A stretch of DNA of 64,000 nucleotides, from the IMG/VR virus record IMGVR_UViG_3300031555_004891; one strand, 5' to 3'. The position numbers and the translations under genes are program-made. This DNA is from a virus. Lineage: Duplodnaviria; Caudoviricetes. How positions within the stretch are numbered: position 1 is the stretch's first letter; every line of letters begins with the position of its first letter. This document shows, piece by piece, positions 4,812 through 47,426 of this stretch. The notes beneath the pieces were generated by a model. It worked only from the letters and a program-made list of their open reading frames with translations. It ran no database searches and had not been told where the DNA came from.

Positions 4812-5240
4812 ATGCTAACTAGAGCTATAGTTGAAAGAGTGCTATCTGAGTATACTTATAAAGTTAGAATTCCTATTTTTGATAGGATTTAGGGAGATGC
4901 AGAACACACAGATTTTGCTAACTTAAGAGAAGCTGTAGCTTGCGTCCCTAAAGGGATTAATAATAGCATAAACGAGGGTGATATTGTTTTTGTTATGTTT
5001 GAAAATAATAGTATGACTGACTTAGTAATTATTGGTCAGCTATATAGAGAAGCCATAACAAACATACCTGATAGTGCTATTAATTGTAGAGCACTAAATG
5101 TAAGCGAAAAAGTACAATTACCAAAAGATATTATGATTGGAGAAATCGATTACTCAAAATTATTTATGTTAGCAAACTTAACGTCTGATGTATAGGCTTA
5201 GCTAGATGATCTAGCAGCTAAAATCGATGCTCTAAAATAA
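4812..5240 (+). CDS. Baseplate spike (gp5/gpV OB-fold-like)
   Basis: ATG 4812, 3 TAG, TAA 5238-5240; YKVRIPIFD...EGDIVFVMFENN...IIG pattern; synteny. Confidence 0.6.
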
Positions 5241-5250
5241 GGGGGTATAA

Positions 5251-5625
5251 ATGAACTCAATAGCCTTTCCAGAAATGTTTAGTTCTGCTAGTACAAATCT
5301 GGTATATGATAGAGAAGCTACTGCACAAAATCTGCTATTGCTTTTAAAATCGGATAAGACGAGTTTTTTCGGAGATCCATATTTTGGTACAACATTAAAA
5401 AGATTAATTTTTGAACAAAACAATACTGTGTTGCGAGATTTAGTTATAGATACTGTTTACTCGACTATTGCTACATATATGCCTTAGATAAAAGCAGATA
5501 GAAAAAATATAACAGTTACATCGGATGGAACAACACTTTATTGCAATATAAAAGCTACAAACATGATCGATTTTAATTTAGAAGACATGAATCTAGCTTT
5601 ATTTAATTTAGAGGAATTAGGATGA
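5251..5625 (+). CDS. Baseplate wedge subunit gp25/gpW-like
   Basis: NLLLLLKSDKTSFFGDPYFGTTLKRLIFE motif; reads through TAG 5485 to TGA overlapping next ATG. Confidence 0.75.
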
Positions 5626-8600: not shown

Positions 8601-9638
8601 ACTATTGATTTAGATAATAGCTCTAGTGTAGATACAGATAATTATTCGTGGTATGCTTTTTGTAGTTTACAATTAATATGTTCGAGTGATTCCCCTCAAA
8701 CCTTACAGAAAGATCAATATGTAATTTTTACATTAAGTGGTAATACCAATTATGCTGCGGGGGCTGGAAACTCAATTAAAACTAATATACCTGTTGCATT
8801 AACTGGCGGTTCGAATCAATCAGCAGAACTTTTACTAAGCGATGGTACGGTATCTAAGTCTTTGTGTGCAAGTATTTATAAAAATCCTTCAGATGATATA
8901 TTTTGGCATAAAGCGAATTCTAGTGATACTTCTACTAATGTAGAATCAGATTCTGTTTCGGAATCATATTCTAATGATACTGTTAGTTTAAGTATGCAAA
9001 ATAAAGCAACAACAGATGTAAAGCATAAATTTTTATATGAAGCATGTGTAAGTCCCACTTTTTGTAAATCATTTCTTCCTGTTTTGATACAGTCAAGTAT
9101 AACAGATTCTGATGCAAAAATTACAATTAAAGTTAAAACAGGTACAGAAACAGGCACATGGTCATTTATTAAAGAGGAGCTTTCTACAAGTGACGCTAAA
9201 GACTTAAAGCATTCTGATAATGTCATTTTTCTTAGGTTACCTGATGAAATTTTTTCAAAGAAAGATCCAGATTACATTTATGCTTAGAAAAATCTACAAA
9301 TATCAGTTACTGATGTAGCTAAAGATGAGATCATTAATGTAACATTATATAATCCAAATAAGTTTATAGATTATAGTGATATAGTAGCTGATTATGAGTT
9401 AGATGGTGGTGCTGGCAATGCGGTTTTAACTAGAATAAAGCAATTGACACAAATAAATAAAGATGATCTACCACCTTTTGATTTTACATATAGAGTAGAT
9501 GAAGGTATCGCTATAAATGATCCAACAGATCCAGAAAGCTTTTTTGATACAAATCACATCAAAAATAAGTTTGTTATATCTCAAATAAACACTTCAACAA
9601 TCTCAAATATAAGTGTAGCTAAACAAAGTAGGAAATAA
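5622..9638 (+). CDS. Large baseplate wedge protein (gp6/gpJ-like N-terminus), 1338 aa code 15
   Basis: YTNKDF...ESDPGVALL...LLGY motifs; five track ORFs in one frame separated only by TAG (6, including tandem TAGTAG 7011-7016). Confidence 0.75.
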
Positions 9639-11876: not shown

Positions 11877-12203
11877 ATGAAACATTCGAATAAGAAAGTA
11901 GATTACATAATTTGTCCGCACTGTGGAGCAGAATATTTACCTAGTGAAATATATTATCCAGATAAATTTTTAGGTAAGCCTCATGATATAGATAAAGTAA
12001 ATAGTGGTAAAATAGATAATTTCTTAGGAAAGTCTATGGATTTAGAAGAAAGTTATCAATGTGATTTTTGTGATACAAAATTTAGAGTGACTGCAAAAAT
12101 TCAATTCAAAGTTGAGCAAGTTTCTAAGTATGATATGTCAAAAGCATATGTGACACCATTATTTGAAGAAAAATTGACTCTAGAAGAAGGGATAGCTGAA
12201 TAA
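11877..12203 (+). CDS. Zn-finger hypothetical protein
   Basis: CPHC and CDFC pairs; AGGAG RBS. Confidence 0.65.
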   Translation: MKHSNKKVDYIICPHCGAEYLPSEIYYPDKFLGKPHDIDKVNSGKIDNFLGKSMDLEESYQCDFCDTKFRVTAKIQFKVEQVSKYDMSKAYVTPLFEEKLTLEEGIAE

Positions 12204-14965
12204 TGATAAAAATATCAGAGCAAACAGCTAAAAAAGTTCCTGGACTAACAGCATTAGTAGTAGAAAGTCCATACAACCCACTAGTTGTAGATGTTCTGAA
12301 AAACGCTCAAGGATCAGATTATGATGCTAAAACAAAGTAGTGGGAAGTTCCAATAACTAACCTTTCTTATTTATTAGATCATTTTTCTATAATAGATGAT
12401 ATAGAATTAAATTTACTTGAAGATAAAAAAGCTAAAAATATAATTTTTTCACAAAAACCTGATGAGCCTTTTTAGATGTTTAAGCATCAAGCAGAAGCTG
12501 TAGAGTTTGGATTAAATAATCCTAAATGGTTATTACTTGATGCTCCCGGGCTTGGTAAAGCGCTTCCTTTAGATACACCTGTTTTAACACCTAATGGATT
12601 TAAACCTATCGATGCTATACATGCTGGTGATATAGTTTTCGATGATAAGGGAAACCCATGTAAAGTTATTGAAGAATTTTATCACGAATCTTTAGACATG
12701 TATAAATTAGATTTTACAACAAAAGATTCTATAATTTGCTGCAAAGATCATTTATGGTAGGTTAGATACAATAAAGGTGTCTGGGATAAGTGTGATAGAA
12801 AATATCATCTAACAGAGTTCAATGAAGCTCGACCTACTAGCTGGCTTATTGAAAATGATAATTGGAAAAAGAATTGTCTAAGAATACCATTTTGTGAGCC
12901 TATAAAATTTCCTAAAAATGAATTGCCTATTGATCCATATCTTTTGGGCTGCTTAATTGGGGATGGATCTTTTAGAAAATATATAAGTTTAACTTCGAGC
13001 GATCAGTTTATTATTGATCAATGTATACATAGCTTAGAGCAGCTTGAGGGAGATGCATTAAAAATAAGGCTTGATGGTAAATATAGTTATATATTTTCAA
13101 CAAAATCAAAGAAACCCTCTAAATTAAAGCATGAGTTAGATAAGCTTGGTTTATTAAATCATTTGTCTTACACAAAATTTATTCCTGATATTTATAAACA
13201 TAGTTCTGTAGAAGATCGTATAGCTCTGTTGCAAGGATTAATGGACACTGATGGTACAGTAAGTTCAGTAAAAACTTATAAGGGAAAATTATCTAATAAA
13301 GCATGTTTCGGAACCTCTTCTAAACAATTGCGGTACGATTTTGAATTCTTAATACAATCTTTAGGTGGTTGGTGTTCAACACGAGAGTTTACAGCTTCTT
13401 ATCGAGACGCATCTGGTTAGAAAAAATAGTGTGCTACTCATTATACAATTTCTATACATTTACCTGATAACTCTATCTTATTTAGATTGCCTAGGAAGAA
13501 AAATTTAGTGTCTAAAAGATATAATAAGCCTAGAAGAAAAATAAAGAATATTACATATGTTGGTAAGCAACCTGGAAAATGCATATCTGTAGACAGTCCA
13601 TCACATTGTTATCTAACAAAAAATTGCATTGTTACGCATAACACCTTATCATTGATTCGGCTAGCAGAAGAATTACATAATCAAGGAAAGATAGAGCATT
13701 GCTTAATAGTTTGTGGTATAAATACGCTTAAAAGAAACTGGCAAAAAGAAATATAGAAATTTAGCACATTAAGCTCTAGAATAATTGGTCAATACATAAG
13801 TTCAAAAGGTAAAGTTTATACCAGATCTGTTAAAGATAGGGTCGAAGAGCTAAAAAATCCTTTAGAAGAGTTTTTTATTATTATAAATGTGGAATCACTC
13901 AGAGATGATGATATAGTAAAAGCTATAAATAAAGGTAAGAATAAATTTGATATGATAGTTGTTGATGAGATTCATACCATGAAATCTCCGACCAGCTCTC
14001 AAGGAAAAAATTTACTAAAAATAAATAAAGCTAAGTATCAAGTAGGTGCTACTGGAACATTATTACTTAATGATCCTTTAGATACTTATATGGCTCTAAA
14101 ATGGATAGGTGCAGAACATTCTACATTAACTAAATTTAAGTATTATTACTGCGAATATGGTGGTCCTTTTGGAAATATGCTAGTTGGATTTAAAAATATG
14201 GATCTACTTAAATACCAACTTGAGCAAGTTTCTTTGAGAAGAAAAAAAGATTTACTAAATCTTCCAGATAAGAATATAATAGATGAGTTTGTTGATATGG
14301 AAACAGCTCAAAGTAATTTTTATGAAAATATAAAGAAAGGTATAGTAGATCAAGTAGATAAAGTAAAAATGTCTACAGCTAATTTGCTAGCTATGGTTAT
14401 AAGATTACGTCAAGCAGCAGAATGTCCAAATGTGTTAACTACAGAGAACATACCATCTGCTAAAATTGAACGTTGTATAGATTTAGCTAAACAAATATTA
14501 TCTGATCCAGATGAGAAAGTAGTTATTTTTAGTTGCTTTAAAGAATCAATAAATTTTATATATAAATAGTTAGCAGAGTTTAATCCATTGCTATGCACTG
14601 GAGATATTCCAGATGATATTATATCAAATAATGTCGATATGTTTCAAAATGATTCTGAGCATAGAGTTATAGTATGTACTGGACAAAAAATGGGAACTGG
14701 TATAACTCTAAATAGAGCGCATTATGCTATTTTTATAAATACACCATGGACAGCAGGTGTGCAAGAGCAATGGGAAGATCGTATATATAGAATCGGTACA
14801 AAGCAACCAGTATTTATATATAGATTATGGGTTAAAGACACTATAGATGAGCGAGTTTTAGACATTCTAAATACAAAAGGTGCCTTGAGTGATTATGTCA
14901 TAGATGACGAAATGACAACTCAGCAATTAGCTATATTAAGACAATATATAGAAGAATTAAGATAA
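12203..14965 (+). CDS. SNF2-family helicase containing an intein (920 aa precursor, code 15)
   Basis: Walker A APGLGK|T, DEIH, TGT, QWEDRIYRIG motifs; five track ORFs in one frame separated by TAG only (7 TAG). Confidence 0.9.
12560..13642 (+). mobile_element. Class 3 (Ala1, WCT) intein with LAGLIDADG homing endonuclease, 361 aa
   Basis: Starts ALPLDTPVLTPNG, block B CCKDHLW, block F KCISVD, ends CIVTHN|T; LLGCLIGDG and LLQGLMDTDG motifs; inserted between K and T of Walker A. Confidence 0.9.
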
Positions 14966-21173: not shown

Positions 21174-23924
21174 ATGGTAGATTCATTGTGGGGTGATGAT
21201 TTCATTATAAAGAAAACCCCTAAAGAAGCTAAAAAGATAATTAAAAAAATATCTGAGCCAAAAGATTCTTCTTCTGTTGTAAAAAAAGCCGTAAAGTCCA
21301 AAAAACTATCCGTCCATGAAAAGTTAGCTATTATTACCGAGAATGTTAAAAAGATTCTCGGTAGATACGCTGACAACACTCAAGTGATAAGGACACGGCA
21401 AGAGTTAACTGATTATATCGACATAGCTATAAAAAATAATGTAATTGCGGTCGATACTGAAACGAATAACAGTCTTGACCCCATCACATGTAAATTGATG
21501 GGTCCCTGTTTATATACACCAGGTTTAAAGAATGCTTATGTACCATTAAATCATGTTAACCCAGATACTTTAGAAAGATTTGATTGGCAATTAACGGAAG
21601 AAGATGTAAAAGAAGAATTAAGTAGACTTACAGATACTAAAATAATAATGCACAATGGTAAGTTCGACTATTCTGTAATAAAATGCACCACAGGTGTTGA
21701 GTTAAGCATTTATTGGGATACAATGATTGGTGCAAAAGTTTTAGATGAGAATGAGAGGTCAGCTGGTTTGAAACAGCAGTATATCGAAAAGATAGATCCA
21801 TCTATTGAAAAATACTCTATAGATCACTTATTTGAAGATATAGAGTATGCGATGGTTGACCCAGAAATATTTGCTTTATATGCTGCAACAGACTCTTATA
21901 TGACTTATAAGCTTTATGAGTGGCAAAAAGATAAATTTGAGATACCTGGTCACCAGCGTTTATATAGCCTTTTTAGAAATGTAGAGATTCCTGTAATAAT
22001 TCCTATAGCTGAAATGGAAATGACTGGTGTAGAAGTAGATCAAGAATATGCTGAGTTGTTAAGTAAAAAGTATCATAAGAAATTAGATACAATCGATCTT
22101 AAAATAGCTGCAGAGTTAGCTACATTAAAAGATAAAATAGCTGAGTGGCGTTTAACAGAAGATGCTAATTTCCACCCGATAGCAACAAAACCTAACAAAT
22201 ATGGTGAGTATTTAGAGCAAAAATCTAAATCAGAGCAATTAGAAGATCCTATAAACTTAGCCAGTCCAACACAGTTAGCTATATTATTCTATGATATATT
22301 AAAATGTCCACCTGTAGATAAAAAGAAACCTAGAGGAACAGGTGAAGCAGAATTAAAAGCTATAGAGCAGAAATTAAAACTTCCTATTTGTAGCCTTTTA
22401 GTAGAAAGACGTGAATGGGTAAAATTGATAACTACTTACATAGACGTAATTCCGGAACTAGCAAAAAGATGGCCTGATGGTAGAGTTCGTACTCACTTTA
22501 ACCAATACGGGGCAGCTACGGGTCGTATGAGTTCGAGTGATCCGCTGAACCTGTAGAATATACCATCACATAATAAAGAAATCCGTATGTTATTTAGAGC
22601 TGCTGATAATTGTGTATTAGTTGGTAGCGACTTCAGTTTATAAATCTGTTGGCTGAAGTAAAACTTACTTAAACGGGGAACTCTCATTGAGACAATCCCG
22701 TGCCAAATCAATCTTAAGATTGATAGTGCGTAGAGACTATCGAAAAGGTAGGCGTAAGCTGAGTAACTGAGTAGAGTAGGCTTCAAGCGAAGTCGAAACA
22801 GTAAGCAACTAAAAAGTTGAAGAGTTAGTCCGACACTTCTAGTGATAGAAGAGAGGTGTAGCGAGCCTCAAAACAAGAAGCAACAAGAACCTAGATTACT
22901 CTCACAATACTCAGGTGATGAGAATATGATTAATGCTTATAAAGCAGGTAAAGACCTTTATGCTACTATTGCCTGTGGTGTATATAAAAATACGTATTGG
23001 GATAACATGGAGCATTGGGAAGATGGATCACCTAATCCTGAAGGTAAGAAACGTAGAGGTAATTGTAAGAGCTTACTTTTGGGGATAATGTATGGACGTG
23101 GTGTAGCTTCTATAGCTGAACAAATTAAAGGTACAGTAGAAGAAGCACAAAAAATTATCGATGATTTTTACACTGGATTTCCAAAAGTAAAAGAATGGAC
23201 TGATAAAACTCAAGCAGATGCTAAAAAGACTGGTTATGTAGAAGATTTATGGGGTAGAAGACGTAGACTTACAGATCTTATGCTTCCTAAATATACTATT
23301 AAAGACCTTAATGCTGCTAAACTTGATTTTAATCCTATCTTACACGCAGAAGGAAAGTTCTCGAAAAAAGAAAATCCTTCTATACAGAAATATAAAGCAG
23401 CACTTGAAAAAGTTCGCGGTAGAAAAGAATATGAAAAGCTAAAAGAGCAAGCATTGAAAGAAAATATAGAATTGCATGATAACACAGGTTTTATAGCTCA
23501 GGCTGAGAGACAATGTGTTAATGCTAGAATTCAGGGTGGTGCTGCTTCCATGACTAAAGTAGCTGTTATAAAGCTGTATAATGATAAAATTCTCAGAGAT
23601 TTAGGATTTAAGTTAAATATAGCCGTGCATGATGAGTTAATTGGTGAGTGCCCTAAAGAAAATGCAGATGCAGTAGCTGATAGACTTTGTGCTATAATGA
23701 AAGGTGCTGCTGAAGACGTTTGTGATGTACCATTTAAATGTGACCCTACAGTTGAGCATTGTTGGTATTTCTCAGATTTCTGCGATACTGTTCAAAAAGA
23801 ATTTAAAGAAGTTTTGAAAAAGTATAATAATGATTGGAATTCAGCATTTAATTATATGGTAGAAACTCATGAAGAATCAACAATTGATCAATTACATGAG
23901 CTTTTAGATGAAATAGCTGTATAA
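21174..23924 (+). CDS. polA: Family A DNA polymerase, join(21174..22637,22881..23924); no 5'-3' exonuclease
   Basis: Exo I DTET, HNGKFD, TGRMSSSDPLNL[TAG=Q]NIP, motif A DFS|QQEPR split by intron, motif B KSLLLGIMYG, motif C VHDE. Confidence 0.92.
22638..22880 (+). mobile_element. Group I self-splicing intron (243 nt, no ORF)
   Basis: Exon CTTCAGT pairs with IGS GCTGAAG (22652-22658) with U-G at splice site; TGTTG pairs with 3' exon CAACA; P3 CTTACT/AGTAAG; P7 GACTA/TAGTC; terminal G at 22880; removal restores DFSQQEPR. Confidence 0.92.
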
Positions 23925-25482: not shown

Positions 25483-25513
25483 ATATGTATACTAATAAAA
25501 TGTGAGGTACCGC

Positions 25514-26818
25514 ATGTTTAAAGATTTTGTAGACTTATGCACTAAATTAGCTGGAACAACTAGTCGACTCAAGAAAGAAGAATACTTGAGAGAATATGAA
25601 AATAATGATTATGTAAAGAAATGCTTATATTTTAGATTTAACCCATACATCACTACAGGTATTTCTAAAAAGAAGATTTCTAAATTACAGCAATCATTTG
25701 AAGATAGAATTGTAGACCCTAATTATAATGTTTTAGATCTGCTGGATTATATTAAAGAGCATAATACAGGTAGAGATGTAGATTTGAGCAAGCTTGAGAG
25801 TTATGCTGAGATGAATTCGCCTTACGCTGATATTATTTATGGTTTAGTTTCAAAAGAATTGAATTTAGGTATTCAAGCAATCACACTTAATAAAGTTTAT
25901 GGTGATAATTTTGTTCCAACGTTTGATTTAATGTTAGCTATGAAATATTTCGATGATCCAGATAAATATCTTCCAGATGGTACAGAATTTGACATTACAG
26001 CAAAACTAGATGGCGTAAGATGTGTTTGCTTTTATGATACTGATTCTATTAAATTCTTTAGCCGTCAAGGTCAACCTATTTATGGCTTAAATCAATTGGA
26101 AGAAGCAGTCAGAGAAAACTTAACACCTGGGTATGTTTATGATGGTGAGCTTCTGTTAAATAGATCAGATCTACACAGTAAAGATTTGTATAGAGCAACA
26201 GTAAAAGTAACATCTGCTGATGCTGTAAAAGAAAATATAGTTTTCAATATTTTTGATAGACTTTCAATAGAAGAATTCAAAAGAGGCTATTCGGATAGTA
26301 TTTCTAGAGATAGAAAAGATGCTTTGCATGCAGAATTGCAGCGTAATAAATCAGAATTCTTAAAAGAAGTAGAAATTCTTTATAGAGGAACAGATAAGTC
26401 TAAAATTCAATATTGGTTGGATAAAATTACATCAGAAGGCGGCGAAGGTGTAATGCTCAACTTATGTAATAGTCCATATGAGTGTAAAAGAAGTAAAGTA
26501 ATTCTTAAAGTAAAGAAAATGCAATCCGCAGATTTAAAATGTATTGCAGTAGAAGAAGGTACTGGTCAAAATGTTGGTAGACTAGGTGCAGCTATTGTAC
26601 AACTTCCTGTAGAAGATAAAATCTATGAAGTAAGTGTTGGTTCCGGTTTCACATTCGAAGATCGAGAATACTTCTGGAATAATAGAGAAGAAATTGTCGG
26701 TAAAATTATCGAGGTACAGTATTTCGAGATAACGCAAAACCAGCAAGGCGGATATAGTTTGAGATTCCCTGTATTTAAAGCAGTAAGAAACGATAAAACA
26801 GAAGTATCTATGTTTTAA
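25514..26818 (+). CDS. ATP-dependent DNA ligase
   Basis: TAKLDGVR (KxDG), DGELL, EGVML, LKVK, VGSGF, SLRFPVF; ATG after GAGGT. Confidence 0.92.
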   Translation: MFKDFVDLCTKLAGTTSRLKKEEYLREYENNDYVKKCLYFRFNPYITTGISKKKISKLQQSFEDRIVDPNYNVLDLLDYIKEHNTGRDVDLSKLESYAEMNSPYADIIYGLVSKELNLGIQAITLNKVYGDNFVPTFDLMLAMKYFDDPDKYLPDGTEFDITAKLDGVRCVCFYDTDSIKFFSRQGQPIYGLNQLEEAVRENLTPGYVYDGELLLNRSDLHSKDLYRATVKVTSADAVKENIVFNIFDRLSIEEFKRGYSDSISRDRKDALHAELQRNKSEFLKEVEILYRGTDKSKIQYWLDKITSEGGEGVMLNLCNSPYECKRSKVILKVKKMQSADLKCIAVEEGTGQNVGRLGAAIVQLPVEDKIYEVSVGSGFTFEDREYFWNNREEIVGKIIEVQYFEITQNQQGGYSLRFPVFKAVRNDKTEVSMF

Positions 26819-26916: not shown

Positions 26917-28356
26917 ATGTTGCTAGTAGATTATTATTTTTATATTATTAAAGTATGCTATAAAAATAAGTGTGTATTTAAGTTTGGCGAATCTAAAACT
27001 GATAGACCAAAAAAGCTTTTAAAAGAATATGAAAATAAAAAGAATGTAACTGCAAAACTTCTCTACACAGATACACTTCCAAATAATGGGTATAATAGAT
27101 TATCTGATAAAGTTATTCATAAATATATTTCTAAAATGTATGAAAAAGCTAATAAGTATGAGATTCAAGTAGAGTTGGGTACAACTGATGGAATAACTGA
27201 GTTTTTTATTTGCAAGATTGGAGAATCTGATGATAAACTAGTTGAAAACTTAAAAAATATTGTATATACTATTGATACTAATCATTATAAAATTGCAGTA
27301 GAGTATTTAGATAATATCGAAAAAATACATTTTCCTCAAAACCATCAGGTCTGCTTCTATTATACTGATGCGATGGAAAAATTAGGTAATTTTCAATTAT
27401 GTGATGAGAAAGATAAACTAATAGTACTTATCGGTCAATTTACACCACAATATATAAATAGATTTGCATTCAGAAATAAAATAATAATCTGGCAAGATTC
27501 TGGTGAGACAGAATTTGCTTATGAGGATTCGAGATGTAATCAAAACATCACTTACATTTCAGATTTGGAGACATTAATTAAGATGAATCAAGACAATAAA
27601 TTTAATTATGTTTTAAGCAACCCACCATACGAATTTGCAAGCCAAATAACAAAAGCTATAATTGATAATGTAAACTTTGATACTTTTGTTAATTTAATGC
27701 CATTAAGTGATTATAATAAAGATAGTTTGTATCGATATGTAAGCAAGTTTGAGTTGGTTGACCCTACTAAATTTAAAGATGCGAAAATCACTAAAAATTT
27801 AAACATAGCAGTTATTGAACCAGATATAGTAGATAAATATTCCGATAGAGAATCTTTTGAAATAGAATCTTTTGATCCTAAATTTAAGTTATTTTATCAA
27901 ATTAATACTAATAGAGAGCATTATTGTTTATCTAGCTTTGCTTATGCTTCTAAATTGAAGTTTCAACCTAATCCATATACTGATGTGTATTTAACATTAA
28001 GAACAATCTTTGATGGTGTACATAAAACTAATAACTGCGCTGATTATAAATGGAATATTGAAAAAATTACATCAAATACGTTGTTAATAAAGAATTTTGG
28101 CGGTGAAGATTGTTTGTGGGGTTCTATATTTAGATTTAAAACCGAAATAGAGCATAAAAATTTTTGTACCTGGTGGTATCACGGTAATTTAAGCCACAAG
28201 CTAATAAAAGGATTAAACAAGACTAGTGGCACTCCAAAAATTGCGTTACCTAGAATTGATTGGTCTCGAACAGATGTAGAATATACCGATGAATATGTTT
28301 TAGAACAAATGGGATTAAAATGGAATGAAAATAAAGATGGGGTAGAGAAATTATGA
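26917..28356 (+). CDS. T5orf172/GIY-YIG-like N-domain fused to N6-adenine MTase catalytic/TRD half
   Basis: YFYIIK...FKFGES...VIHKY...TEFF N-terminus; FNYVLSNPPY and LMP motifs; C-terminal LPRIDWS; no intact GxG motif I. Confidence 0.55.
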   Translation: MLLVDYYFYIIKVCYKNKCVFKFGESKTDRPKKLLKEYENKKNVTAKLLYTDTLPNNGYNRLSDKVIHKYISKMYEKANKYEIQVELGTTDGITEFFICKIGESDDKLVENLKNIVYTIDTNHYKIAVEYLDNIEKIHFPQNHQVCFYYTDAMEKLGNFQLCDEKDKLIVLIGQFTPQYINRFAFRNKIIIWQDSGETEFAYEDSRCNQNITYISDLETLIKMNQDNKFNYVLSNPPYEFASQITKAIIDNVNFDTFVNLMPLSDYNKDSLYRYVSKFELVDPTKFKDAKITKNLNIAVIEPDIVDKYSDRESFEIESFDPKFKLFYQINTNREHYCLSSFAYASKLKFQPNPYTDVYLTLRTIFDGVHKTNNCADYKWNIEKITSNTLLIKNFGGEDCLWGSIFRFKTEIEHKNFCTWWYHGNLSHKLIKGLNKTSGTPKIALPRIDWSRTDVEYTDEYVLEQMGLKWNENKDGVEKL

Positions 28357-28622
28357 AAACAAAAATTTGGGAAAAAGATTTTAATGTATGTGGATTTAAA
28401 GCAGAGGATAAAGAACTTCTTCGTAAATATGTACCAAATATGGATACATGCTTATCTATTAAAAAGATAGCAAAAAGCGCTGCTGAGTTATCAATGCTTG
28501 ATGGTACATCTTATTATGTATCCTGCTATATTGGTGGAGTAAATAAAGGTCATATTTGTTGTATACAAACAACAGAAAAAAGATCTGCTGACAGGAAACG
28601 TTTATATCCTATAAAAGAATAA
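28353..28622 (+). CDS. Hypothetical protein
   Basis: ATGA overlap with upstream gene. Confidence 0.5.
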   Translation: MKTKIWEKDFNVCGFKAEDKELLRKYVPNMDTCLSIKKIAKSAAELSMLDGTSYYVSCYIGGVNKGHICCIQTTEKRSADRKRLYPIKE

Positions 28623-28674
28623 TGTGCAGGATATTCAATAATAAAATAAAAAAAAATAGGAAGTATAAACAAAA

Positions 28675-29037
28675 ATGTCTAACTATATAACAATTATTTC
28701 AAAAGAAGATATAAAATATTTACCAGACTGGATAGCATTTGTTATGTTTGCTATTCTAGCAGCTATTGTAATTATTCCAACAGTTATTAGTTGGGCTATA
28801 GTAAAGAAAAAGAATAAACCATGGATTAATATACTTTGTACTGAGGTTATTTCTGGTGCTGTTGCTATTATAGGTGTTATCATTTTTGTTTTTACTGTGC
28901 AACCACATATGTTAGAACCATCAGGAAAATATACATATAAAGCAACTGTTGATAAAAATAAAATTACTGTTTCAGAATATGAAGATTTTATTGAGAAGTA
29001 TAAACCTAAATTTCAAGATGGTTATTATTACTTCTAA
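28675..29037 (+). CDS. Hypothetical membrane protein
   Basis: Two hydrophobic TM segments. Confidence 0.6.
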   Translation: MSNYITIISKEDIKYLPDWIAFVMFAILAAIVIIPTVISWAIVKKKNKPWINILCTEVISGAVAIIGVIIFVFTVQPHMLEPSGKYTYKATVDKNKITVSEYEDFIEKYKPKFQDGYYYF

Positions 29038-29054
29038 GCAGAAGATATAGAGAA

Positions 29055-29270
29055 ATGAAAATATATAATATAGGAAATTATAGAGTACATCTCAGCAATA
29101 AGAAGAAGCCTGAGTCAAATTACAGCAAATTTATTGTTTATAAAAATGGGGTAAAAGGTGACCTAGATGGTGGCTACTTGAGATGGGAAAACGAAGACGT
29201 GATTGTTCCTAGATTAACAAAAGTATTAAAAGAATGGGATAACCTAGATGTTGGAAAAGAAAACATTTGA
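29055..29270 (+). CDS. Hypothetical protein
   Basis: ORF in operon context. Confidence 0.5.
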   Translation: MKIYNIGNYRVHLSNKKKPESNYSKFIVYKNGVKGDLDGGYLRWENEDVIVPRLTKVLKEWDNLDVGKENI

Positions 29271-29982
29271 TTTAATTATAAGCAACCCACCTTATAAATA
29301 TGGGAATGAGGTTATTAAAAATACTTTATAGGTAACCGGAGAAAAAGCCGTTATACTAATGCCTGCTGCTAAATATAAAGCAGATAGGCTTTTCTCCCAT
29401 ATCGAGAATATTGAGTTAGCTGATAAAAATTTCTTTAAAGATAAGAAGCAGGATATTAAACCTGATTTAAGCATAGCTGTATGTGTAGCTGATAGTAATG
29501 ATGAAATAACTTTTGAAAAGGTTATGGATTCTCTATTACCAGAAGATATAGCGCAATTTTTGGACTTAAATAGAAAATTGAGTAAGAAATATGATCGATT
29601 AACTTATATGAAAAGTATGAGAGAAAAAGTTTCTGGAAATAAAGAATATTTTATGGTTCCTTATTGGCAGCATGTTGGTTGTGCTAGATCTGATAAAAGC
29701 GTAACTAGAAAATATAATTTTGGCGATACAGATGCGATAAATAAAATATTAAACAGTGATATGTGCTATAGCGTTTTGAAATTTCCTTCTTCTGCTTATT
29801 GGAATAATTTCTTTAATTGGTATTATAAAAATGATATTCAAGATTATATTTTATTAAACTGCTGTGATTTATTATATCCTAGTTACATATGGTTCCCGCA
29901 GATAGATTTTTCTATAGATAGAGATTATGCAAATTTAACTTTTCTTCAACTTTTAGAAATAATGTTTTCGGAAATAAAGTAA
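29248..29982 (+). CDS. N6-adenine MTase catalytic (NPPY) plus TRD half
   Basis: Code 15: MLEKKTFDLIISNPPY...[TAG 29329]...VILMP; C-terminal FPQIDFS; lacks SAM-binding motif I. Confidence 0.65.
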
Positions 29983-30029
29983 CACAAAATATGATCCTGT
30001 ATAAAGATATAAAGGGGTAATGTACTTTT

Positions 30030-30455
30030 ATGCAATTATCTAATGAAATAAAAGAAAAAATAAAAACAGAATACACAGAGTGGTTTAATTCTCAATATGG
30101 TGATAAAACATTAGAAGAGAGAAGAAAATTAGGTGCTTTTTTCACACCGCCTGAGCTAACCATTAAAATGATAGAGAAATTCGATTCTATAGAAAACAAA
30201 ACTATTCTAGACCCTACATGTGGTACAGGTAATTTATTAGCAGGTTGCATAATAGCAGGTGCTAATCCAGAAATGATTTATGGAAACGAATATGATCCAA
30301 CATTTGTACAGTTATGTAGAGATAGATTGAAAAAATTAGGTGTTCCTGAGTCTAATATACATGAGGGTGATGCACTTAATCCAGAAGCATTAAAGAGAAG
30401 TAATTTCACAGATAACTGGAATAAAGATGTTGGTTGTAAAACAGAATTATGGTAA
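30030..30455 (+). CDS. N6-adenine MTase SAM-binding half (motifs X, I-III)
   Basis: LGAFFTPPEL, ILDPTCGTGNLL, IYGNEYD, GDAL; stops before motif IV; ends KTELW. Confidence 0.75.
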   Translation: MQLSNEIKEKIKTEYTEWFNSQYGDKTLEERRKLGAFFTPPELTIKMIEKFDSIENKTILDPTCGTGNLLAGCIIAGANPEMIYGNEYDPTFVQLCRDRLKKLGVPESNIHEGDALNPEALKRSNFTDNWNKDVGCKTELW

Positions 30456-30464
30456 AAAGATATT

Positions 30465-30623
30465 ATGAAAATTTGGAAAATGAAAGATTGTTTTTATTCA
30501 GATATCATAAAAGAATTAAATAATTTAGAAAAGAAACATGCTGTTGTTAGAGAAATTACAGCTAGTAATGAACACTGGTTTACAATATTTTACACTATAG
30601 AAGATAAGGTAGAAGAAGAATGA
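30465..30623 (+). CDS. Small hypothetical protein (52 aa)
   Basis: ATG 30465, TGA overlapping next ATG. Confidence 0.45.
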   Translation: MKIWKMKDCFYSDIIKELNNLEKKHAVVREITASNEHWFTIFYTIEDKVEEE

Positions 30624-31102
30624 GATTTTGTAATGTATGTGATTGCACAGATGCTAAAAATGATTGCAAGACATGTAAATATAGAGAAGAATGTGATTAT
30701 GTTTGGGTAACAGAAATTTGGAAAAAGAATCAGAAGCTCTTAACGCCATTAAACCCAGGTTGGGTTAAGCCTGATTTTAAAAATAATCACGTAGTAACAG
30801 TTAGTGGTAAATATGATTTTTGTGTTTTTAACGTACCAAAAAAGACTGAGACTATAACTATAAATGACATTTGTGTTGATGAGGCTGGAAGAGGTCAGGG
30901 TTTATCTAAAAAACTTATTTATGGGTTAATGGAAAAATATGATCGAGATATTATAGCTAAATGCGTAAAAGATAGCTCAGCAGAAGATTTTTGGTCTCAT
31001 ATGGGCGAAAAGATAGCAGAAGAGCCTGGTAAGCAACGTCCTTTATCTGTGTATAAGGTACGTAATGAAAAAATGAGTATGAGAAAACAGGAATTATTTT
31101 AA
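30620..31102 (+). CDS. GNAT-family acetyltransferase with Cys-rich N-terminus
   Basis: ICVDEAGRGQGLSKKLI acetyl-CoA motif A, AEDFWSHMG motif B; ends KQELF. Confidence 0.8.
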   Translation: MRFCNVCDCTDAKNDCKTCKYREECDYVWVTEIWKKNQKLLTPLNPGWVKPDFKNNHVVTVSGKYDFCVFNVPKKTETITINDICVDEAGRGQGLSKKLIYGLMEKYDRDIIAKCVKDSSAEDFWSHMGEKIAEEPGKQRPLSVYKVRNEKMSMRKQELF

Positions 31103-31172
31103 TAATTTTATTAAATATGAAAGCACTGTTTTTGTATAAATATAATGAAACATAGACATTTTGGAGGAAGTA

Positions 31173-32234
31173 ATGGAAAAACTAATCAATCAAGATTGGA
31201 CTAATCCTTTTACTAATTGTAAAATAGGTGAAGATTATTATGGAATTATAGCTGCTGGCGAAGGTGTTAAAAATGTAAAAATGCCTGATGGGACTATTCT
31301 TGATGCTAGCGATGTTAAGAGAGATTTGGGTTATCCACAACTTTTTGCTTGGAATTTAGAAGGAAAAGCCTTGTTGGAATGGGTTGAGTATTTAGATAAA
31401 AATCCTGATTGTCCCTGTAAGTTAGTTGTTGACTCAGGTGCGTATTCTATGTGGAGCCGTGGAAAAGAATTTGATATGGATGAGTATATCAATTTCTTAA
31501 ACAGTAATGATGTTATAGAAAAAGCTTTTTGGGTAGCAGAAGCTGACGTTATCCCTGGAAGTATGGGTGTAGATCCAACAGAAGAAGAAAGAGCAGCAGC
31601 ACCTGAAAAAAGCTGGGAAAACTTCTTATATATGGTAGATAGAGTTAAAATTCCTAAGAAAATTGTACCTATTTTCCATCAAGGTGAAGATATCAAGCAT
31701 TTGAGACGAATGTTAGCTTATAGATATCCAGATGGTGATTTCATTCCATATATTGGAATTTCTCCTCGAAATGATGTCCATGTTAATGAAAAATCAAAAT
31801 GGTATGAGTATATTTGGAAAGTTATTTATGAAGATTGTGCAGCTTTAGGTCGGGATATTCCATTGACTCATAACTTTGGTATGACTACTATAGCTCTCAT
31901 GGAGCAGTATCCTAGTTACACATCAGATTCGACTTCATGGATTAGAAGCGCATCTTTTGGTAATATAATGATTATAGTAAATGGTAAAATAAAAACTGTA
32001 TACGTAAGTAATCGAGGATTAGATAGAGATGAGCACATCAATAATCAACCTAAAGCATTAAAAGATGCTGTAGAAGATTGGTGTAAGAAATTAGGCTATG
32101 GCTACACTGTAGAAGCTTTAGTAAATGATGATAATGGAAGCTTGAGAATGATTTGGAATCTTCTAGTTTTAGATCAATGGAGAAAAACCTTCAAATATGA
32201 GGGTACACAATCGTTTAAGACCGAGCTTTGGTAA
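31173..32234 (+). CDS. dpdA: DpdA-type DNA 7-deazaguanine transglycosylase (TGT fold)
   Basis: VVDSGAYS, ADVIPG, VPIFHQGED, HNFGMT, DSTSW motifs; ATG after GGAGG; ends KTELW. Confidence 0.8.
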   Translation: MEKLINQDWTNPFTNCKIGEDYYGIIAAGEGVKNVKMPDGTILDASDVKRDLGYPQLFAWNLEGKALLEWVEYLDKNPDCPCKLVVDSGAYSMWSRGKEFDMDEYINFLNSNDVIEKAFWVAEADVIPGSMGVDPTEEERAAAPEKSWENFLYMVDRVKIPKKIVPIFHQGEDIKHLRRMLAYRYPDGDFIPYIGISPRNDVHVNEKSKWYEYIWKVIYEDCAALGRDIPLTHNFGMTTIALMEQYPSYTSDSTSWIRSASFGNIMIIVNGKIKTVYVSNRGLDRDEHINNQPKALKDAVEDWCKKLGYGYTVEALVNDDNGSLRMIWNLLVLDQWRKTFKYEGTQSFKTELW

Positions 32235-32265: not shown

Positions 32266-33396
32266 ATGATTTTAAGAACAGATGCACTTAAAGATGTATG
32301 TAGTAAGATTTTGAGCGCTGTGGATAGCTCAGAATTATCAGCAGTAACTGAAACGTTAGAATTGAAAGCATTTAATAATGCTTTACATATGCGCGTAACA
32401 AATAAAGAATATTTTGTAGATATTAAGCTTGATGTAGATGGTATTGATAATTTCCACGCTACTGTAAATGCAAATCTTTTCCTTAAGCTTATTTCTCAAA
32501 TTACAACTGAAACTATTGAGCTTAATGTAGTTGATAGAGCTTTAGTCGTAAAAGGAAATGGTGTTTATAAGCTTCCTTTAATTTTTGATGGAGAAGATCT
32601 TCTAGTACTTCCTGAAATTATCATTGAGAATGATACTGTAAACACAAAAATTTCAAGCGAAAATCTTTTGAGTATTTTACAATATAATAGTAAAGAATTG
32701 CTTAAAGGTAATATTGCTAAACCCGTACAAAAATTTTATTATGTAGATGAAAAGGGTGCTATTACTTTCACTACAGGTGCATGTGTAAATAGCTTTAATA
32801 CTGATACACCTTTCACTGTTTTACTTAATAGTAGAATTGTTAAATTATTTAAGTTATTTAAAACTGGTGATGTGCAGTTCACTTTAGGTTATGATGCATT
32901 AAGTGATGATGTTATCCAAACTAAAGTTTGCTTCAAAAATGATAATATAGTATTGACTGCAATTTTGTCCTGTGATGATACTTTGTTAAAGCAAGTTCCT
33001 GTTAATGCTATCAGAGGTAGAGCCGATTTTGTTTACCCTCATTCCATAACTGTTAATAAAGATGCTCTTATCCAAACTATTAGCCGTCTTATGCTTTTTA
33101 GTTCTGGTATTGGTGGTAAAGAAATCGTTAAACCTTACAGTATGTTTGAATTTAAAGAATCTAGTATGATTGTTTGGGATGTTAAGAAAGAGCAAAACGA
33201 AGAAGTTATTTATACTAATTCTGATCCATCACTTTCTACTAAATATACTACTATGTTAGACCTTAATGATTTGAAACTTACTCTCGAGTCTTGCTCAGAA
33301 CAATATGTAACACTTAACTTTGGTAATAAGCAAGCAATGGTGTTAGCTAGAGCAAATGTTAAAACTGTTATACCTGAAATTGTAACCATGGAGTAA
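32266..33396 (+). CDS. dnaN: Sliding clamp (DNA Pol III beta-like)
   Basis: 376 aa three-domain size; N-terminal LKDVCSKILSAV, ATVNANLFLKLISQI pattern; clamp loader genes also present. Confidence 0.75.
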   Translation: MILRTDALKDVCSKILSAVDSSELSAVTETLELKAFNNALHMRVTNKEYFVDIKLDVDGIDNFHATVNANLFLKLISQITTETIELNVVDRALVVKGNGVYKLPLIFDGEDLLVLPEIIIENDTVNTKISSENLLSILQYNSKELLKGNIAKPVQKFYYVDEKGAITFTTGACVNSFNTDTPFTVLLNSRIVKLFKLFKTGDVQFTLGYDALSDDVIQTKVCFKNDNIVLTAILSCDDTLLKQVPVNAIRGRADFVYPHSITVNKDALIQTISRLMLFSSGIGGKEIVKPYSMFEFKESSMIVWDVKKEQNEEVIYTNSDPSLSTKYTTMLDLNDLKLTLESCSEQYVTLNFGNKQAMVLARANVKTVIPEIVTME

Positions 33397-44697: not shown

Positions 44698-45714
44698 ATG
44701 GCGCAAAGCTTAGCAGTCAGATACAGACCAGAAACACTAGAAGAGGTTGTTAGCCAAAAATCAGTTATCAAAATTCTTAATAAGCAGTTGCAGCTTGACC
44801 AATTGAAACATAATTATTTATTCTGTGGTCCTAGCGGCACAGGGAAGACAACTACTGCCCGTGCGTTTGCAAAACTTATAAACGAAGGTGTTGGTGATCC
44901 TATAGAGATTGATGGCGCATCAAACAATGGTGTAGAAAACGTCAGAGCTATTATCAAAAATGCTCAAGAAAGATCTATTGAGGGTAAATATAAGATCTTT
45001 ATTATCGACGAAGCGCATATGATAACAACTGCTGGCTGGAATGCTTTTCTTAAATGCATTGAAGAGCCACCTGCTTTTACCATTTTTATGTTTTGTACTA
45101 CTGACCCCCAAAAAATACCTGCAACAATTATTAATCGTGTTATGAAGTTTCAACTCACAAAGATTGAAACAAATCTTATAGTCGATAGATTGAAATACAT
45201 ATGTAAATGCGAAAATGTTTCATACACAGATGAGGCTATTGAGTTTATCGCAAAAGTTGCTGATGGTGGTATGCGTGATGCTATAGCGAGTATGGAACAG
45301 TGTATTGATTATGGTGAGCTCAATATTGATAATGTTTTAACTGTATTAGGTTCTTACTCATATTCGATGTTTTTCAATCTAGTTAACTACATTATAGATG
45401 GAAAAGACCCAGAAGTGTTACAAACTGTAGAAGATGTGTATAATCAAGGATCTGATTTAAAACTTTTTGTAGAGCAATTTTTGAATTTCTGTTTAGATGT
45501 AGCTAAATATGCTATTTTTAATAATTGTTCGATGGTAAAGATACCTTCAAGCATGGAGCAAGACCTTAAAAATGCTACAAACTTCGAGAACGCTTCTAAA
45601 TATTATATGTATTTGACTGATAAGCTTCTCGATTTAAAAGTTATATTGAAAAATGACACAAATATTAAAGACACTGTAGAAGTTTATTTCTTAAAAATGT
45701 CTAGATGTATGTGA
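44698..45714 (+). CDS. dnaX: Clamp loader ATPase (DnaX gamma/tau-like)
   Basis: YRP, GPSGTGKTT, IDGASN, IIDEAH, EEPP, GGMRDA. Confidence 0.92.
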   Translation: MAQSLAVRYRPETLEEVVSQKSVIKILNKQLQLDQLKHNYLFCGPSGTGKTTTARAFAKLINEGVGDPIEIDGASNNGVENVRAIIKNAQERSIEGKYKIFIIDEAHMITTAGWNAFLKCIEEPPAFTIFMFCTTDPQKIPATIINRVMKFQLTKIETNLIVDRLKYICKCENVSYTDEAIEFIAKVADGGMRDAIASMEQCIDYGELNIDNVLTVLGSYSYSMFFNLVNYIIDGKDPEVLQTVEDVYNQGSDLKLFVEQFLNFCLDVAKYAIFNNCSMVKIPSSMEQDLKNATNFENASKYYMYLTDKLLDLKVILKNDTNIKDTVEVYFLKMSRCM

Positions 45715-45721
45715 GGTTTAT

Positions 45722-46504
45722 ATGGTAGGTCAAGAGCATATAATTAAATATATAGATAATAAGACCAGGGATACTTTCCCTAGGTCTTTAATACTATTAG
45801 GTGAAACAGGTTGCGGTAAACATACTGTTATAGCATACATAAAGGATAAACTTAAACTTGAGGTAATTAATATATCTGATAATCTAAATCTAGAATTTAT
45901 AGAAAATCTTTATAGTAAACCAGAGCCTTATATTTATGTTATAGACGCACCTAAGATAACGATTAAAGAGCAGAATATAATTCTTAAATTTGTAGAAGAG
46001 CCACTTAAAAATTCTTATATAATTATTATTGCTGAAACAAAAAATCAGCTTCTACAAACTGTTTATAATAGATGTCAAGTGTTATCTTTTAATCCATATA
46101 GTAGAGAGCAGTTACAGCAATTCACATCAGATGAGTTGGTTCTCAAAATAGCTAAAACACCAGGTCAAGTAACTGATCTTTTAGCTAGTGATTTGAAAAG
46201 TATGCTTGAGTTAGCTGAAAAGATTGTAAGAAAGATTGGTAACGCAAATTTACCGAATGTTTTAACAATATCAGATAAAATAGCTTATAAGAATGAGAAA
46301 GATAAATTTGATCTAGATATTTTTTCAAGAATTCTGTTATATACTGTAAAGCAGGAAATTATCTGTAATAACACAGACCCTAGATATCTAGCTATGTATG
46401 ATTTAGTACGAGAATGGTTACTAAAGAAAAAAGCACCAACTATAAGTCAAAAATTCTTATTTGAAAATTATCTAGTTAAATTACATGAGCTTATGAGAGG
46501 TTAA
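45722..46504 (+). CDS. holB: Clamp loader delta-prime-like subunit
   Basis: MVGQ, GETGCGK, QNIILKFVEEP, TVYNRC. Confidence 0.8.
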   Translation: MVGQEHIIKYIDNKTRDTFPRSLILLGETGCGKHTVIAYIKDKLKLEVINISDNLNLEFIENLYSKPEPYIYVIDAPKITIKEQNIILKFVEEPLKNSYIIIIAETKNQLLQTVYNRCQVLSFNPYSREQLQQFTSDELVLKIAKTPGQVTDLLASDLKSMLELAEKIVRKIGNANLPNVLTISDKIAYKNEKDKFDLDIFSRILLYTVKQEIICNNTDPRYLAMYDLVREWLLKKKAPTISQKFLFENYLVKLHELMRG

Positions 46505-46505
46505 T

Positions 46506-47426
46506 ATGACTATTGAAAGCTTAAAAGAGTTAATTGAAACAAATGCTGATTTAGATAGTATGTATATTTTTTTGAATTCTGAAAATACTTTTCTATCAAA
46601 TCAATATATAGTAGAGATTTCAAAAAAGAAAAACTTAAAAATAGTTTACGTAGAGGATCTTAAAGCTCTTATTCCAGATAAGAATGATATTTTTGGCGTA
46701 GAAGAAACTATAGATAGCACCTGCTTATATGTTCATCATCAAGAAACATTTGATTTTAAAGATTCTAGTTTGAAAGAATTAAAGAATCTTATCATTGTTT
46801 GCGATAAGATTGATGATGAAACAAAAGAAATTTTTGATCCATATATTATAAAAATGCCAAGACTAGAAGAGTGGATGATAAAAGATTATGTATACACTAT
46901 AGCAGATGGGGTAGATACTGTTAAATTAGATTGGCTTATAAAAGTTGCTAATAATGACATTTATCGCATAGAAAATGAAATAGCAAAAATATCTATATTT
47001 CCTAAAGTTGAAAGAAATTATATTTTTGATCTTCTTATGGAAGAAGATGCTTTTGCTGACTTAAATAACTATCACATATTTGACTTATCTACAGCATTGT
47101 TACAGAAAGACCTGATTAAAATTGCTGAGTTAGTAGAAGATGTTAAAAGTTGGGATTGTGAACCGCTCGGCTTGCAAGTATTAACTTCTCAGAATTTTAG
47201 AAAAGTTTTACAAATTCAGTTATCCCCTAAACCAGATCCAGATAAATTAGGCTTAACTAGTAAACAGATTTGGGCTATACAAAAATATAACTGTGGCTTT
47301 TATTCTAGAGATCAATTAGTAAAGATTTTTGATAAAGTAACCTATGCAGATTATATGATGAAAAATGGTGACTTATCGAATGATAAGCTAGTTGATTATT
47401 TAATTCTTAATATTTTATCGGCATAA
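46506..47426 (+). CDS. holA: Clamp loader delta-like subunit
   Basis: NDIYRIENEIAKI, IFDL, EPL, D..MKNG pattern; synteny with dnaX/holB. Confidence 0.7.
   Translation: MTIESLKELIETNADLDSMYIFLNSENTFLSNQYIVEISKKKNLKIVYVEDLKALIPDKNDIFGVEETIDSTCLYVHHQETFDFKDSSLKELKNLIIVCDKIDDETKEIFDPYIIKMPRLEEWMIKDYVYTIADGVDTVKLDWLIKVANNDIYRIENEIAKISIFPKVERNYIFDLLMEEDAFADLNNYHIFDLSTALLQKDLIKIAELVEDVKSWDCEPLGLQVLTSQNFRKVLQIQLSPKPDPDKLGLTSKQIWAIQKYNCGFYSRDQLVKIFDKVTYADYMMKNGDLSNDKLVDYLILNILSA

Follow-up and report, generated by a model that had tools for sequence, protein, structure and literature searches.

A putative split N6-adenine DNA methyltransferase with a shared cofactor-binding half in a TAG-recoded phage

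We describe three genes, labelled A, B and C throughout, in a 64,000-nucleotide stretch of a virus of the Caudoviricetes (IMG/VR virus record IMGVR_UViG_3300031555_004891), which was analysed as a whole and is called the window below. All three lie on the plus strand (Table 1). Based on sequence motifs, homology and gene linkage, we consider it probable that A and B encode the two polypeptides of a single N6-adenine DNA methyltransferase of the TaqI/Eco57I type, which is split in the loop that joins motif III on strand beta3 to motif IV on strand beta4. In this enzyme, A would provide the N-terminal helices, strands beta1-beta3 and all contacts to S-adenosylmethionine (SAM), and B would provide strands beta4-beta7 together with the catalytic NPPY loop, followed by a target-recognition domain (TRD) at the C-terminus. 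Comparison with relatives shows both genes to be under purifying selection and supports the view that selection keeps them apart, and the gene counts in other viral records support the idea that one SAM half can face several catalytic and specificity partners. C is an accessory gene, whose product is a complete methyltransferase fold rather than a half according to its structural model.

A carries the SAM-binding motifs of a gamma-class N6-adenine methyltransferase, namely GAFFTPPE (motif X), ILDPTCGTG (motif I), YGNE (motif II) and EGDAL (motif III). It matches positions 20-121 of the 311 positions of the Pfam family N6_Mtase (PF02384) with 37.2 bits, above the cut-off of 20.4, and also matches phrog_3820 and phrog_799 (DNA methyltransferase). 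We found 211 homologues of A, and lengths, identities and C-terminal tails were taken from the 120 that were listed. These proteins stand alone, are 119-158 amino acids long and 55-99% identical, and are encoded on contigs of up to 238 kb. The mean column identity of the family is 66%; the sequences TPP, DPTCGTG, GNE and GD are invariant, as are residues D61, G65, G67, E87 and G113. The ratio of non-synonymous to synonymous substitution rates (dN/dS) of A is 0 when compared with the relative L044 and 0.08 when compared with L002. No longer relatives of A, either fused or permuted, were seen in a word-indexed search, which is weak evidence.

B opens with MLEKKTFDLIISNPPY and has the stretch FDLIISNPPY at its start, with NPPY at residues 13-16. 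Its frame is open only if the TAG at codon 28 is decoded as an amino acid, assumed to be glutamine in the translation; under translation table 11, B is cut at this codon. The L044 orthologue differs by 16 residues (94% identity) and has its TAG at the same codon. The two genes are separated by 24 synonymous and 19 non-synonymous changes, giving a dN/dS of 0.16, indicative of purifying selection, and the orthologue in L002, which lies directly upstream of its own A, has no TAG. At the NPPY strand, B matches phrog_799 as well as Eco57I (PF07669), the latter below the cut-off (15.5 versus 25.3). On the phrog_799 profile, A occupies positions 193-247 and B positions 283-318, and the two matches are therefore collinear. 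In the window the gene order is the reverse: B precedes A, is in another frame and is separated from it by a 47-nucleotide spacer, so that the two genes do not represent one frameshifted gene. A and B thus lack the single-chain order X-I-II-III-IV-...-TRD of gamma-class enzymes, and the motifs of one fold are instead divided between two neighbouring genes, a division that is kept in relatives. A preliminary description of the window had made much the same proposal, namely two halves of one gamma-class enzyme in reverse order and with separate starts, the second of them visible only when TAG is read through, and the motif partition, the selection on both genes and the fused homologues described below agree with it. 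Its assignment of motifs X and I-III to A also stands, but A does not end just after GDAL, as it had stated; a further 25 residues follow. B and C are the only two NPPY frames in the window. A 71-amino-acid open reading frame (ORF) that overlaps the start of B (29055-29270) was considered as a frameshifted relic of an N-terminal half and was rejected, since neither the N-half profile nor any family member resembles it.

The relatives of B show how the two pieces might belong together. Searched exhaustively with phmmer against 1.8 billion representatives, B gave 93 matches. Roughly 25 of them are halves in which NPPY falls at residues 9-18, another 35 or so are mid-length proteins that have 100-160 residues ahead of NPPY, and about 25 are of the C type. 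A canonical A-like N-terminal half in the same chain is present in only two of the 93 proteins, P0128 and P0183. In P0128 (394 amino acids), which also carries PF02384, the A-family hidden Markov model matches residues 1-151 with an E-value of 1.6e-26 and the B part covers residues 159-356; P0183 is likewise fused with a B part and matches the A-family model with an E-value of 6e-5. In both proteins the A part precedes the B part within one chain, which shows A and B to be collinear parts of the same enzyme. Both fusions are in the gamma order, and a fusion of the order B-then-A was not seen among the 93 matches. The locus encoding P0128 has no separate A. The preliminary description had named intact single-gene homologues as the finding that would speak for decay; what we find is that all 120 listed relatives of A stand alone and that the two fusions are the only ones among the relatives of B. 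The most variable region of the NPPY family is its middle, TRD part. In one lineage, L006, a 60-amino-acid frame (4924-5103) lies just upstream of the B-type half and matches beta1-beta2 of the non-canonical N-half profile described below (E-value 3e-4), which points to an origin of this B-type half from a mid-length gene that lost its N-half.

Gene linkage was studied in a context sample of about a dozen lineages around stand-alone A genes. IMG/VR was scanned with single proteins, which found almost nothing, with B-family alignments, which were too generic or gave few loci, and with an A-family alignment, which was productive. In nine of 12 lineages, a gene of the NPPY family is located within 2.5 kb of A and on the same strand. 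A B-type half lies directly upstream of A in the window and L044 and in L002/L003, and 2 kb upstream in L006. Mid-length genes are found 0.9-1.4 kb upstream of A in L013/L014 and L045, C-type genes overlap the start of A in L004/L005, L007 and L012, and L015 has a divergent half 1.3 kb downstream of A. Each viral record searched has one clear A, and most have one to three intact NPPY genes; no NPPY-family gene without an A was found among these records. The complete 35-kb genome G008 encodes one A and two tandem halves, which start with MNPPYSG... and MKLVTNPPFSG..., and in the 220-kb record G004 (70% complete) one A is found together with two halves and a mid-length gene, which are arranged in tandem 30 kb from A. 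The complete 218-kb genome G006 has one A, a C-type gene and a 600-amino-acid protein with two tandem copies of the TRD. The latter protein, encoded in the locus L056 (G006:C1:127778-131554), has one catalytic part followed by the two TRD copies, an arrangement that recalls a Type I S subunit with its pair of TRDs. The window itself has one A and the two NPPY genes B and C.

C is 479 amino acids long with NPPY at residues 235-238, and there is no TAG in C or A. The exact C protein is found on contigs of up to 262 kb. An AlphaFold2 model of C, based on an alignment of 84 relatives, has a mean predicted local distance difference test (pLDDT) score of 91.9. In the model, residues 1-118 form a small alpha/beta domain, which is followed by a helix (residues 147-157) and by strands at residues 168-172, 188-192, 211-214, 229-234 (leading to NPPY), 254-262, 275-280 and 295-300. 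These strands make up a full seven-stranded methyltransferase sheet, after which the TRD follows. In VIA-align, residues 143-452 of C superpose on residues 21-413, that is on the whole, of M.TaqI with a Z-score of 12.0 and a root-mean-square deviation of 3.7 over 261 aligned residues; C also superposes on M.BseCI and CamA, with 261-296 residues aligned over the three DNA enzymes. Residues 137-307 superpose on DIMT1/KsgA/Erm with Z-scores of 12-13. Since beta1-beta3 precede the NPPY strand in the model, C appears to have its own, sequence-divergent N-terminal Rossmann half. B is homologous to the C-terminal 256 residues of C (23% identity, E-value 1e-12), and it is through this homology and the C model that a TaqI-type C-terminal TRD can be assigned to B. 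Across the 84 relatives, the asparagine and the second proline of NPPY are invariant, and the first proline and the tyrosine nearly so. The N-half of the C family has no GxGxG motif; IGQF or INDF is found after beta1, and none of about 150 mid-length and C-type relatives is canonical. Beta2 ends with an acidic residue, the usual ribose ligand, in 86% of the C-family members. A profile-profile comparison of A with the N-half of C gave a probability of 2.4%, which is not significant. C itself has no Pfam match, whereas eight relatives match GIY-YIG (PF01541) and 60 of the 84 give weak matches to Eco57I; look-alikes of its N-terminal domain in the Atlas are T5orf172/MUG113 (score 0.82, TM 0.64-0.72), which we treat as a lead. 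C is missing from the close relatives L044 and L002, where unrelated genes take its place. The preliminary description had regarded C as a second NPPY half, placed behind a nuclease-like N-terminal domain, and as an alternative partner of the same SAM half. The NPPY motif and the homology to B are as it described, but the modelled full TaqI-like fold does not fit a half, and simple completion of the fold by A is therefore not applicable to C. One SAM half with alternative partners is supported by the numbers, with one A to two B-type halves in G008, to three NPPY genes in G004, and to two in G006 and in the window.

Several observations weigh against the proposed split enzyme. In the complete 139-kb genome G002, the C-type gene that overlaps A is the only NPPY-family gene. 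As the C-type genes overlapped by A, in G002 as elsewhere, encode a beta1-beta3 of their own, fold completion cannot be the full explanation. The complete genome G001 has an intact A beside a 41-amino-acid remnant of an NPPY gene, a divergent NPPF protein located 2.3 kb upstream is the sole neighbour of this kind in G005, and in L046 a C-type gene is found without an A within 5 kb. Lastly, an AlphaFold model of P0128, intended as a stand-in for an A:B complex, reached a mean pLDDT of 49 and was not used; MAFFT could not align the A-type with the B-type rows, and the C-terminal half of the alignment consisted of only two rows.

How C relates to A can be read in two ways. We propose that C is a separate accessory enzyme, which would act alone or also use A. 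According to the first reading, C is autonomous and unrelated to A, either as a methyltransferase with a non-canonical pocket or as a T5orf172 nuclease (GIY-YIG clan) that reads DNA in a Type IIG-like manner, and its position next to A reflects synteny only. The complete fold with its invariant NPPY and the C-type gene of L046 without a nearby A favour such an autonomous protein, and so do its patchy distribution, with unrelated genes in its place in L044 and L002, and the resemblance of its N-terminal domain to T5orf172/MUG113, together with the GIY-YIG matches of eight relatives. However, in three independent lineages the stop and start codons of the C-type gene and A overlap, which speaks for coupling of their expression and, along with G002, favours a link between C and A, and an A is present in every complete record carrying the family. 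We regard autonomy of C as a serious possibility that falls somewhat short of an even chance.

In the second reading, A serves the NPPY family as a whole, acting in trans as a SAM module or activator. The N-halves of the mid-length and C-type proteins would then be degenerate relics, assembly would be akin to the complementation of fragments that overlap, and C would be a true second client of A. The lack of a canonical GxGxG in the roughly 150 mid-length and C-type relatives, which have IGQF or INDF instead, and the lack of detectable homology between the A-family and C-family profiles are consistent with this, as are the C-type overlaps in L004, L007 and L012, the mid-length genes 0.9-1.4 kb from A in L013 and L045, and G002, where the C-type gene is the only possible partner of A. 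The 60-amino-acid N-half remnant before the B-type gene of L006 suggests that the cis half is dispensable, and the only homologues with a canonical cis half, P0128 and P0183, are the fused ones, the former at a locus without a separate A. On the other hand, the N-half of C is modelled confidently as an integral part of the sheet, the acid that closes beta2 in 86% of the family suggests that C may bind SAM alone, and no direct precedent for the displacement of a folded cis half is known to us. On balance we lean against this reading, while considering it possible.

The other two explanations concern A and B themselves. NPPY amino-methyltransferases include the Trm11, RlmL and HemK types, and the A-B enzyme could accordingly act on RNA or protein: Trm11 is the best match of A among solved sequences (E-value 2e-5), and the catalytic core of C superposes best on KsgA/Dim1/Erm. 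We consider this improbable, as the architecture of a catalytic part plus TRD fits the DNA enzymes TaqI, BseCI and CamA over 261-296 residues, Pfam and PHROG give DNA methylase families, and the genes lie in a replication and DNA-modification module beside a sliding clamp. Decay, with B as a pseudogene killed by its TAG and A as a leftover fragment, would agree with the cut at codon 28 under table 11 and with G001, which lost its NPPY gene yet keeps A, but is very hard to reconcile with window-wide recoding of TAG, the TAG retained in L044 at a dN/dS of 0.16, the L002 orthologue without a TAG and the conservation of A in more than 200 sequences.

For the split enzyme we propose the following mechanism. 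The beta1 edge of A would pair with the beta4 edge of B to give an active enzyme, as in the fragment complementation of split methyltransferases, and this enzyme would methylate adenine in phage DNA. A would be the constant module, present once per genome, whereas the NPPY/TRD proteins would be variable and often multiple, so that specificities could be changed or multiplied without duplicating the cofactor half. The TAG in B would confine the full-length protein to the stage of infection at which TAG decoding takes place.

Residues L140 and W141, likewise invariant in the family alignment, form the C-terminal end of A, and LW is the exact C-terminus in 104 of the 120 listed homologues and lies within the last four residues in 115 of them. 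Clients of bacterial beta clamps carry the binding motif QL[SD]LF. The tails of the ligase, A, the GNAT-like protein and the DpdA-like transglycosylase, which are encoded directly ahead of the clamp gene, all combine an acidic residue, a leucine and an aromatic residue (Table 1), and in L007 QueC ends with ELIW and a DUF5591 protein with SKLF; the likeness to the QL[SD]LF consensus was judged by eye. As this tail recurs on DpdA, GNAT-like and ligase proteins beside the clamp gene, the ...ELW of A is probably a clamp-docking peptide. As in the beta-clamp client motif, it is a short terminal peptide ending with leucine and an aromatic residue, and it is found here on several DNA enzymes encoded beside the clamp and clamp loader; it differs in that tryptophan is the usual last residue. 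To our knowledge, no methyltransferase, DpdA or GNAT-like enzyme has been described as a client of a bacterial beta clamp. The tail of A would most likely dock the enzyme on the phage beta clamp, so that new DNA would be methylated behind the fork, next to the insertion of 7-deazaguanine by the equally tagged DpdA. One might speculate further that the clamp-tethered SAM half is a cartridge shared in trans by changing catalytic and specificity subunits, including those with a relic N-half or a nuclease-like domain, giving combinatorial, replication-coupled and TAG-timed methylation; in this full form we regard the idea as rather unlikely. In the relatives L006 (7983-8813) and L011 (5001-5816), the stop codon of A is itself a TAG. 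If it were decoded, A would gain about 130 residues and its LW end would be buried, which could represent a read-through switch.

The predicted enzyme shares with M.TaqI and Eco57I-type enzymes the motif set and order X, I, II, III, IV (NPPY) and a C-terminal TRD. It differs from them in that motifs III and IV lie in different chains, encoded by two genes with the catalytic half first, and in that one SAM half is common to several catalytic halves. Natural methyltransferases made of two polypeptides are known among cytosine-5 enzymes, namely M.AquI and M.EcoHK31I, and fragments of the monomeric cytosine-5 enzymes M.HhaI, M.BspRI and M.SssI complement each other (PMC3404938). In M.AquI and M.EcoHK31I, one fold is likewise formed from two separately encoded pieces, which assemble in the cell. 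However, those enzymes modify cytosine at C5, are divided within the variable region or after it (motifs VIII/IX) and have one fixed partner, whereas here a predicted amino-methyltransferase of phages is cut inside the Rossmann sheet and has one-to-many partners. Type I HsdM/HsdS systems also combine a constant cofactor-binding subunit with exchangeable specificity subunits, but HsdM has the whole catalytic domain and HsdS only reads DNA, whereas here the catalytic loop goes with the specificity part. C resembles the Type IIG/IIC fusions Eco57I, BpuSI and MmeI in joining a candidate domain of a nuclease superfamily to a gamma-class methyltransferase and TRD; this N-terminal domain is T5orf172/GIY-YIG-like rather than PD-(D/E)XK, and its motif I is non-canonical. 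The adenine methylases reported in a survey of jumbo phages are all either whole or circularly permuted (PMC7824862). We found no description of a natural split N6-adenine methyltransferase with a shared SAM half in a literature search whose coverage was incomplete and which does not prove absence. Split methyltransferases have so far comprised the two rare cytosine-5 cases and laboratory constructs. If our proposal is true, it would represent a new way to build modular DNA-modifying enzymes, in which an adenine methyltransferase is divided inside its Rossmann sheet, the division is widespread and under selection, and one cofactor half serves several specificity halves. As the genes stand here in the order of the beta class, the split pair would furthermore be a present-day case of the gene-fission intermediate that has been invoked for the circular permutation of methyltransferase classes. 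Such proteins would be natural parts for split, targetable writers of N6-methyladenine and, in combination with the shared C-terminal tail, they suggest that methylation, 7-deazaguanine insertion and ligation are assembled on the sliding clamp.

The window has a G+C content of 31% and every long frame is on the plus strand. Many frames are joined when TAG is read as a residue: with TAG as glutamine, 5622-9638 merges into a frame of 1338 amino acids (six TAG codons) and 12203-14965 into one of 920 amino acids (seven TAG codons). The phage, a large gut phage, is therefore one in which TAG is read as an amino acid. No tRNA gene was found in the 64-kb window, and the TAG decoder is therefore not encoded here. 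A, B and C sit within a replication and DNA-modification module that also encodes a DnaB-type helicase, a primase, PolA in two frames and, ahead of C, a Vut_1 transporter, an SDR protein and the ligase. After the ligase follow C, three small ORFs, B, A, a 52-amino-acid ORF, the GNAT-like protein, the DpdA-like transglycosylase and the beta-type sliding clamp, and further along the window genes for dUTPase, RecA, gyrase, clamp loader and SbcCD are found. The clamp gene is homologous (E-value 2e-127) to a gene of L007 with a weak DNA_pol3_beta match, and bacterial-type clamp-loader genes are located at 44698-47426. Scans for promoters and terminators gave the same counts as in shuffled sequence, with no plus-strand terminator between C and A. 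In cultured phages, only the ligase and one weak match were related to this locus.

Table 1. Features of the window considered in this study (positions refer to the whole 64,000-nucleotide stretch).
Feature	Position	Strand	Description
A	30030..30455	+	Putative stand-alone SAM-binding half of a gamma-class N6-adenine methyltransferase; 141 amino acids; ends with ...CKTELW
B	29248..29982	+	Putative catalytic half, motif IV NPPY to motif VIII plus target recognition; 244 amino acids; one in-frame TAG
In-frame TAG	29329..29331	+	Codon 28 of B; same TAG in the 94%-identical L044 orthologue
C	26917..28356	+	T5orf172/GIY-YIG-like domain (residues 1-130), modelled complete TaqI-like fold, motif I IGQF, NPPY at 27619-27630, TRD
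A tail	30405..30452	+	Variable linker with insertions and deletions plus conserved [DE]LW; proposed clamp-docking peptide
Sliding clamp	32266..33396	+	Beta-type; phrog_947 DNA polymerase processivity factor, full length, E-value 5e-12
DpdA-like transglycosylase	31161..32234	+	phrog_887 queuine tRNA-ribosyltransferase, E-value 1e-43; ends with ...FKTELW; 7-deazaguanine DNA modification context
GNAT-like protein	30620..31102	+	Weak acetyltransferase matches; ends with ...RKQELF; L002 orthologue ...RKAELF
ATP-dependent DNA ligase	25502..26818	+	Pfam DNA_ligase_A_M, OB_2; ends with ...TEVSMF; L002/L003 orthologues ...DEVSLW

The C-type/A pair of L007 (1265-6675, 10704-11534) is located inside a full 7-deazaguanine set consisting of Vut_1, QueC, QueD, QueE, FolE and two DUF5591 proteins and also adjoins dCTP and dCMP deaminases and a clamp. 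In the window, DNA polymerase A is encoded by two frames, 21174-22556 and 22842-23924, which are about 290 nucleotides apart. The first comprises the exonuclease and the beginning of the polymerase domain, and the second the remainder; the first frame stops at a TAG and reaches 22643 when TAG is read as glutamine. Between C and B, a frame at 28675-29037 encodes a 120-amino-acid protein with two predicted membrane helices and weak Pfam matches only.

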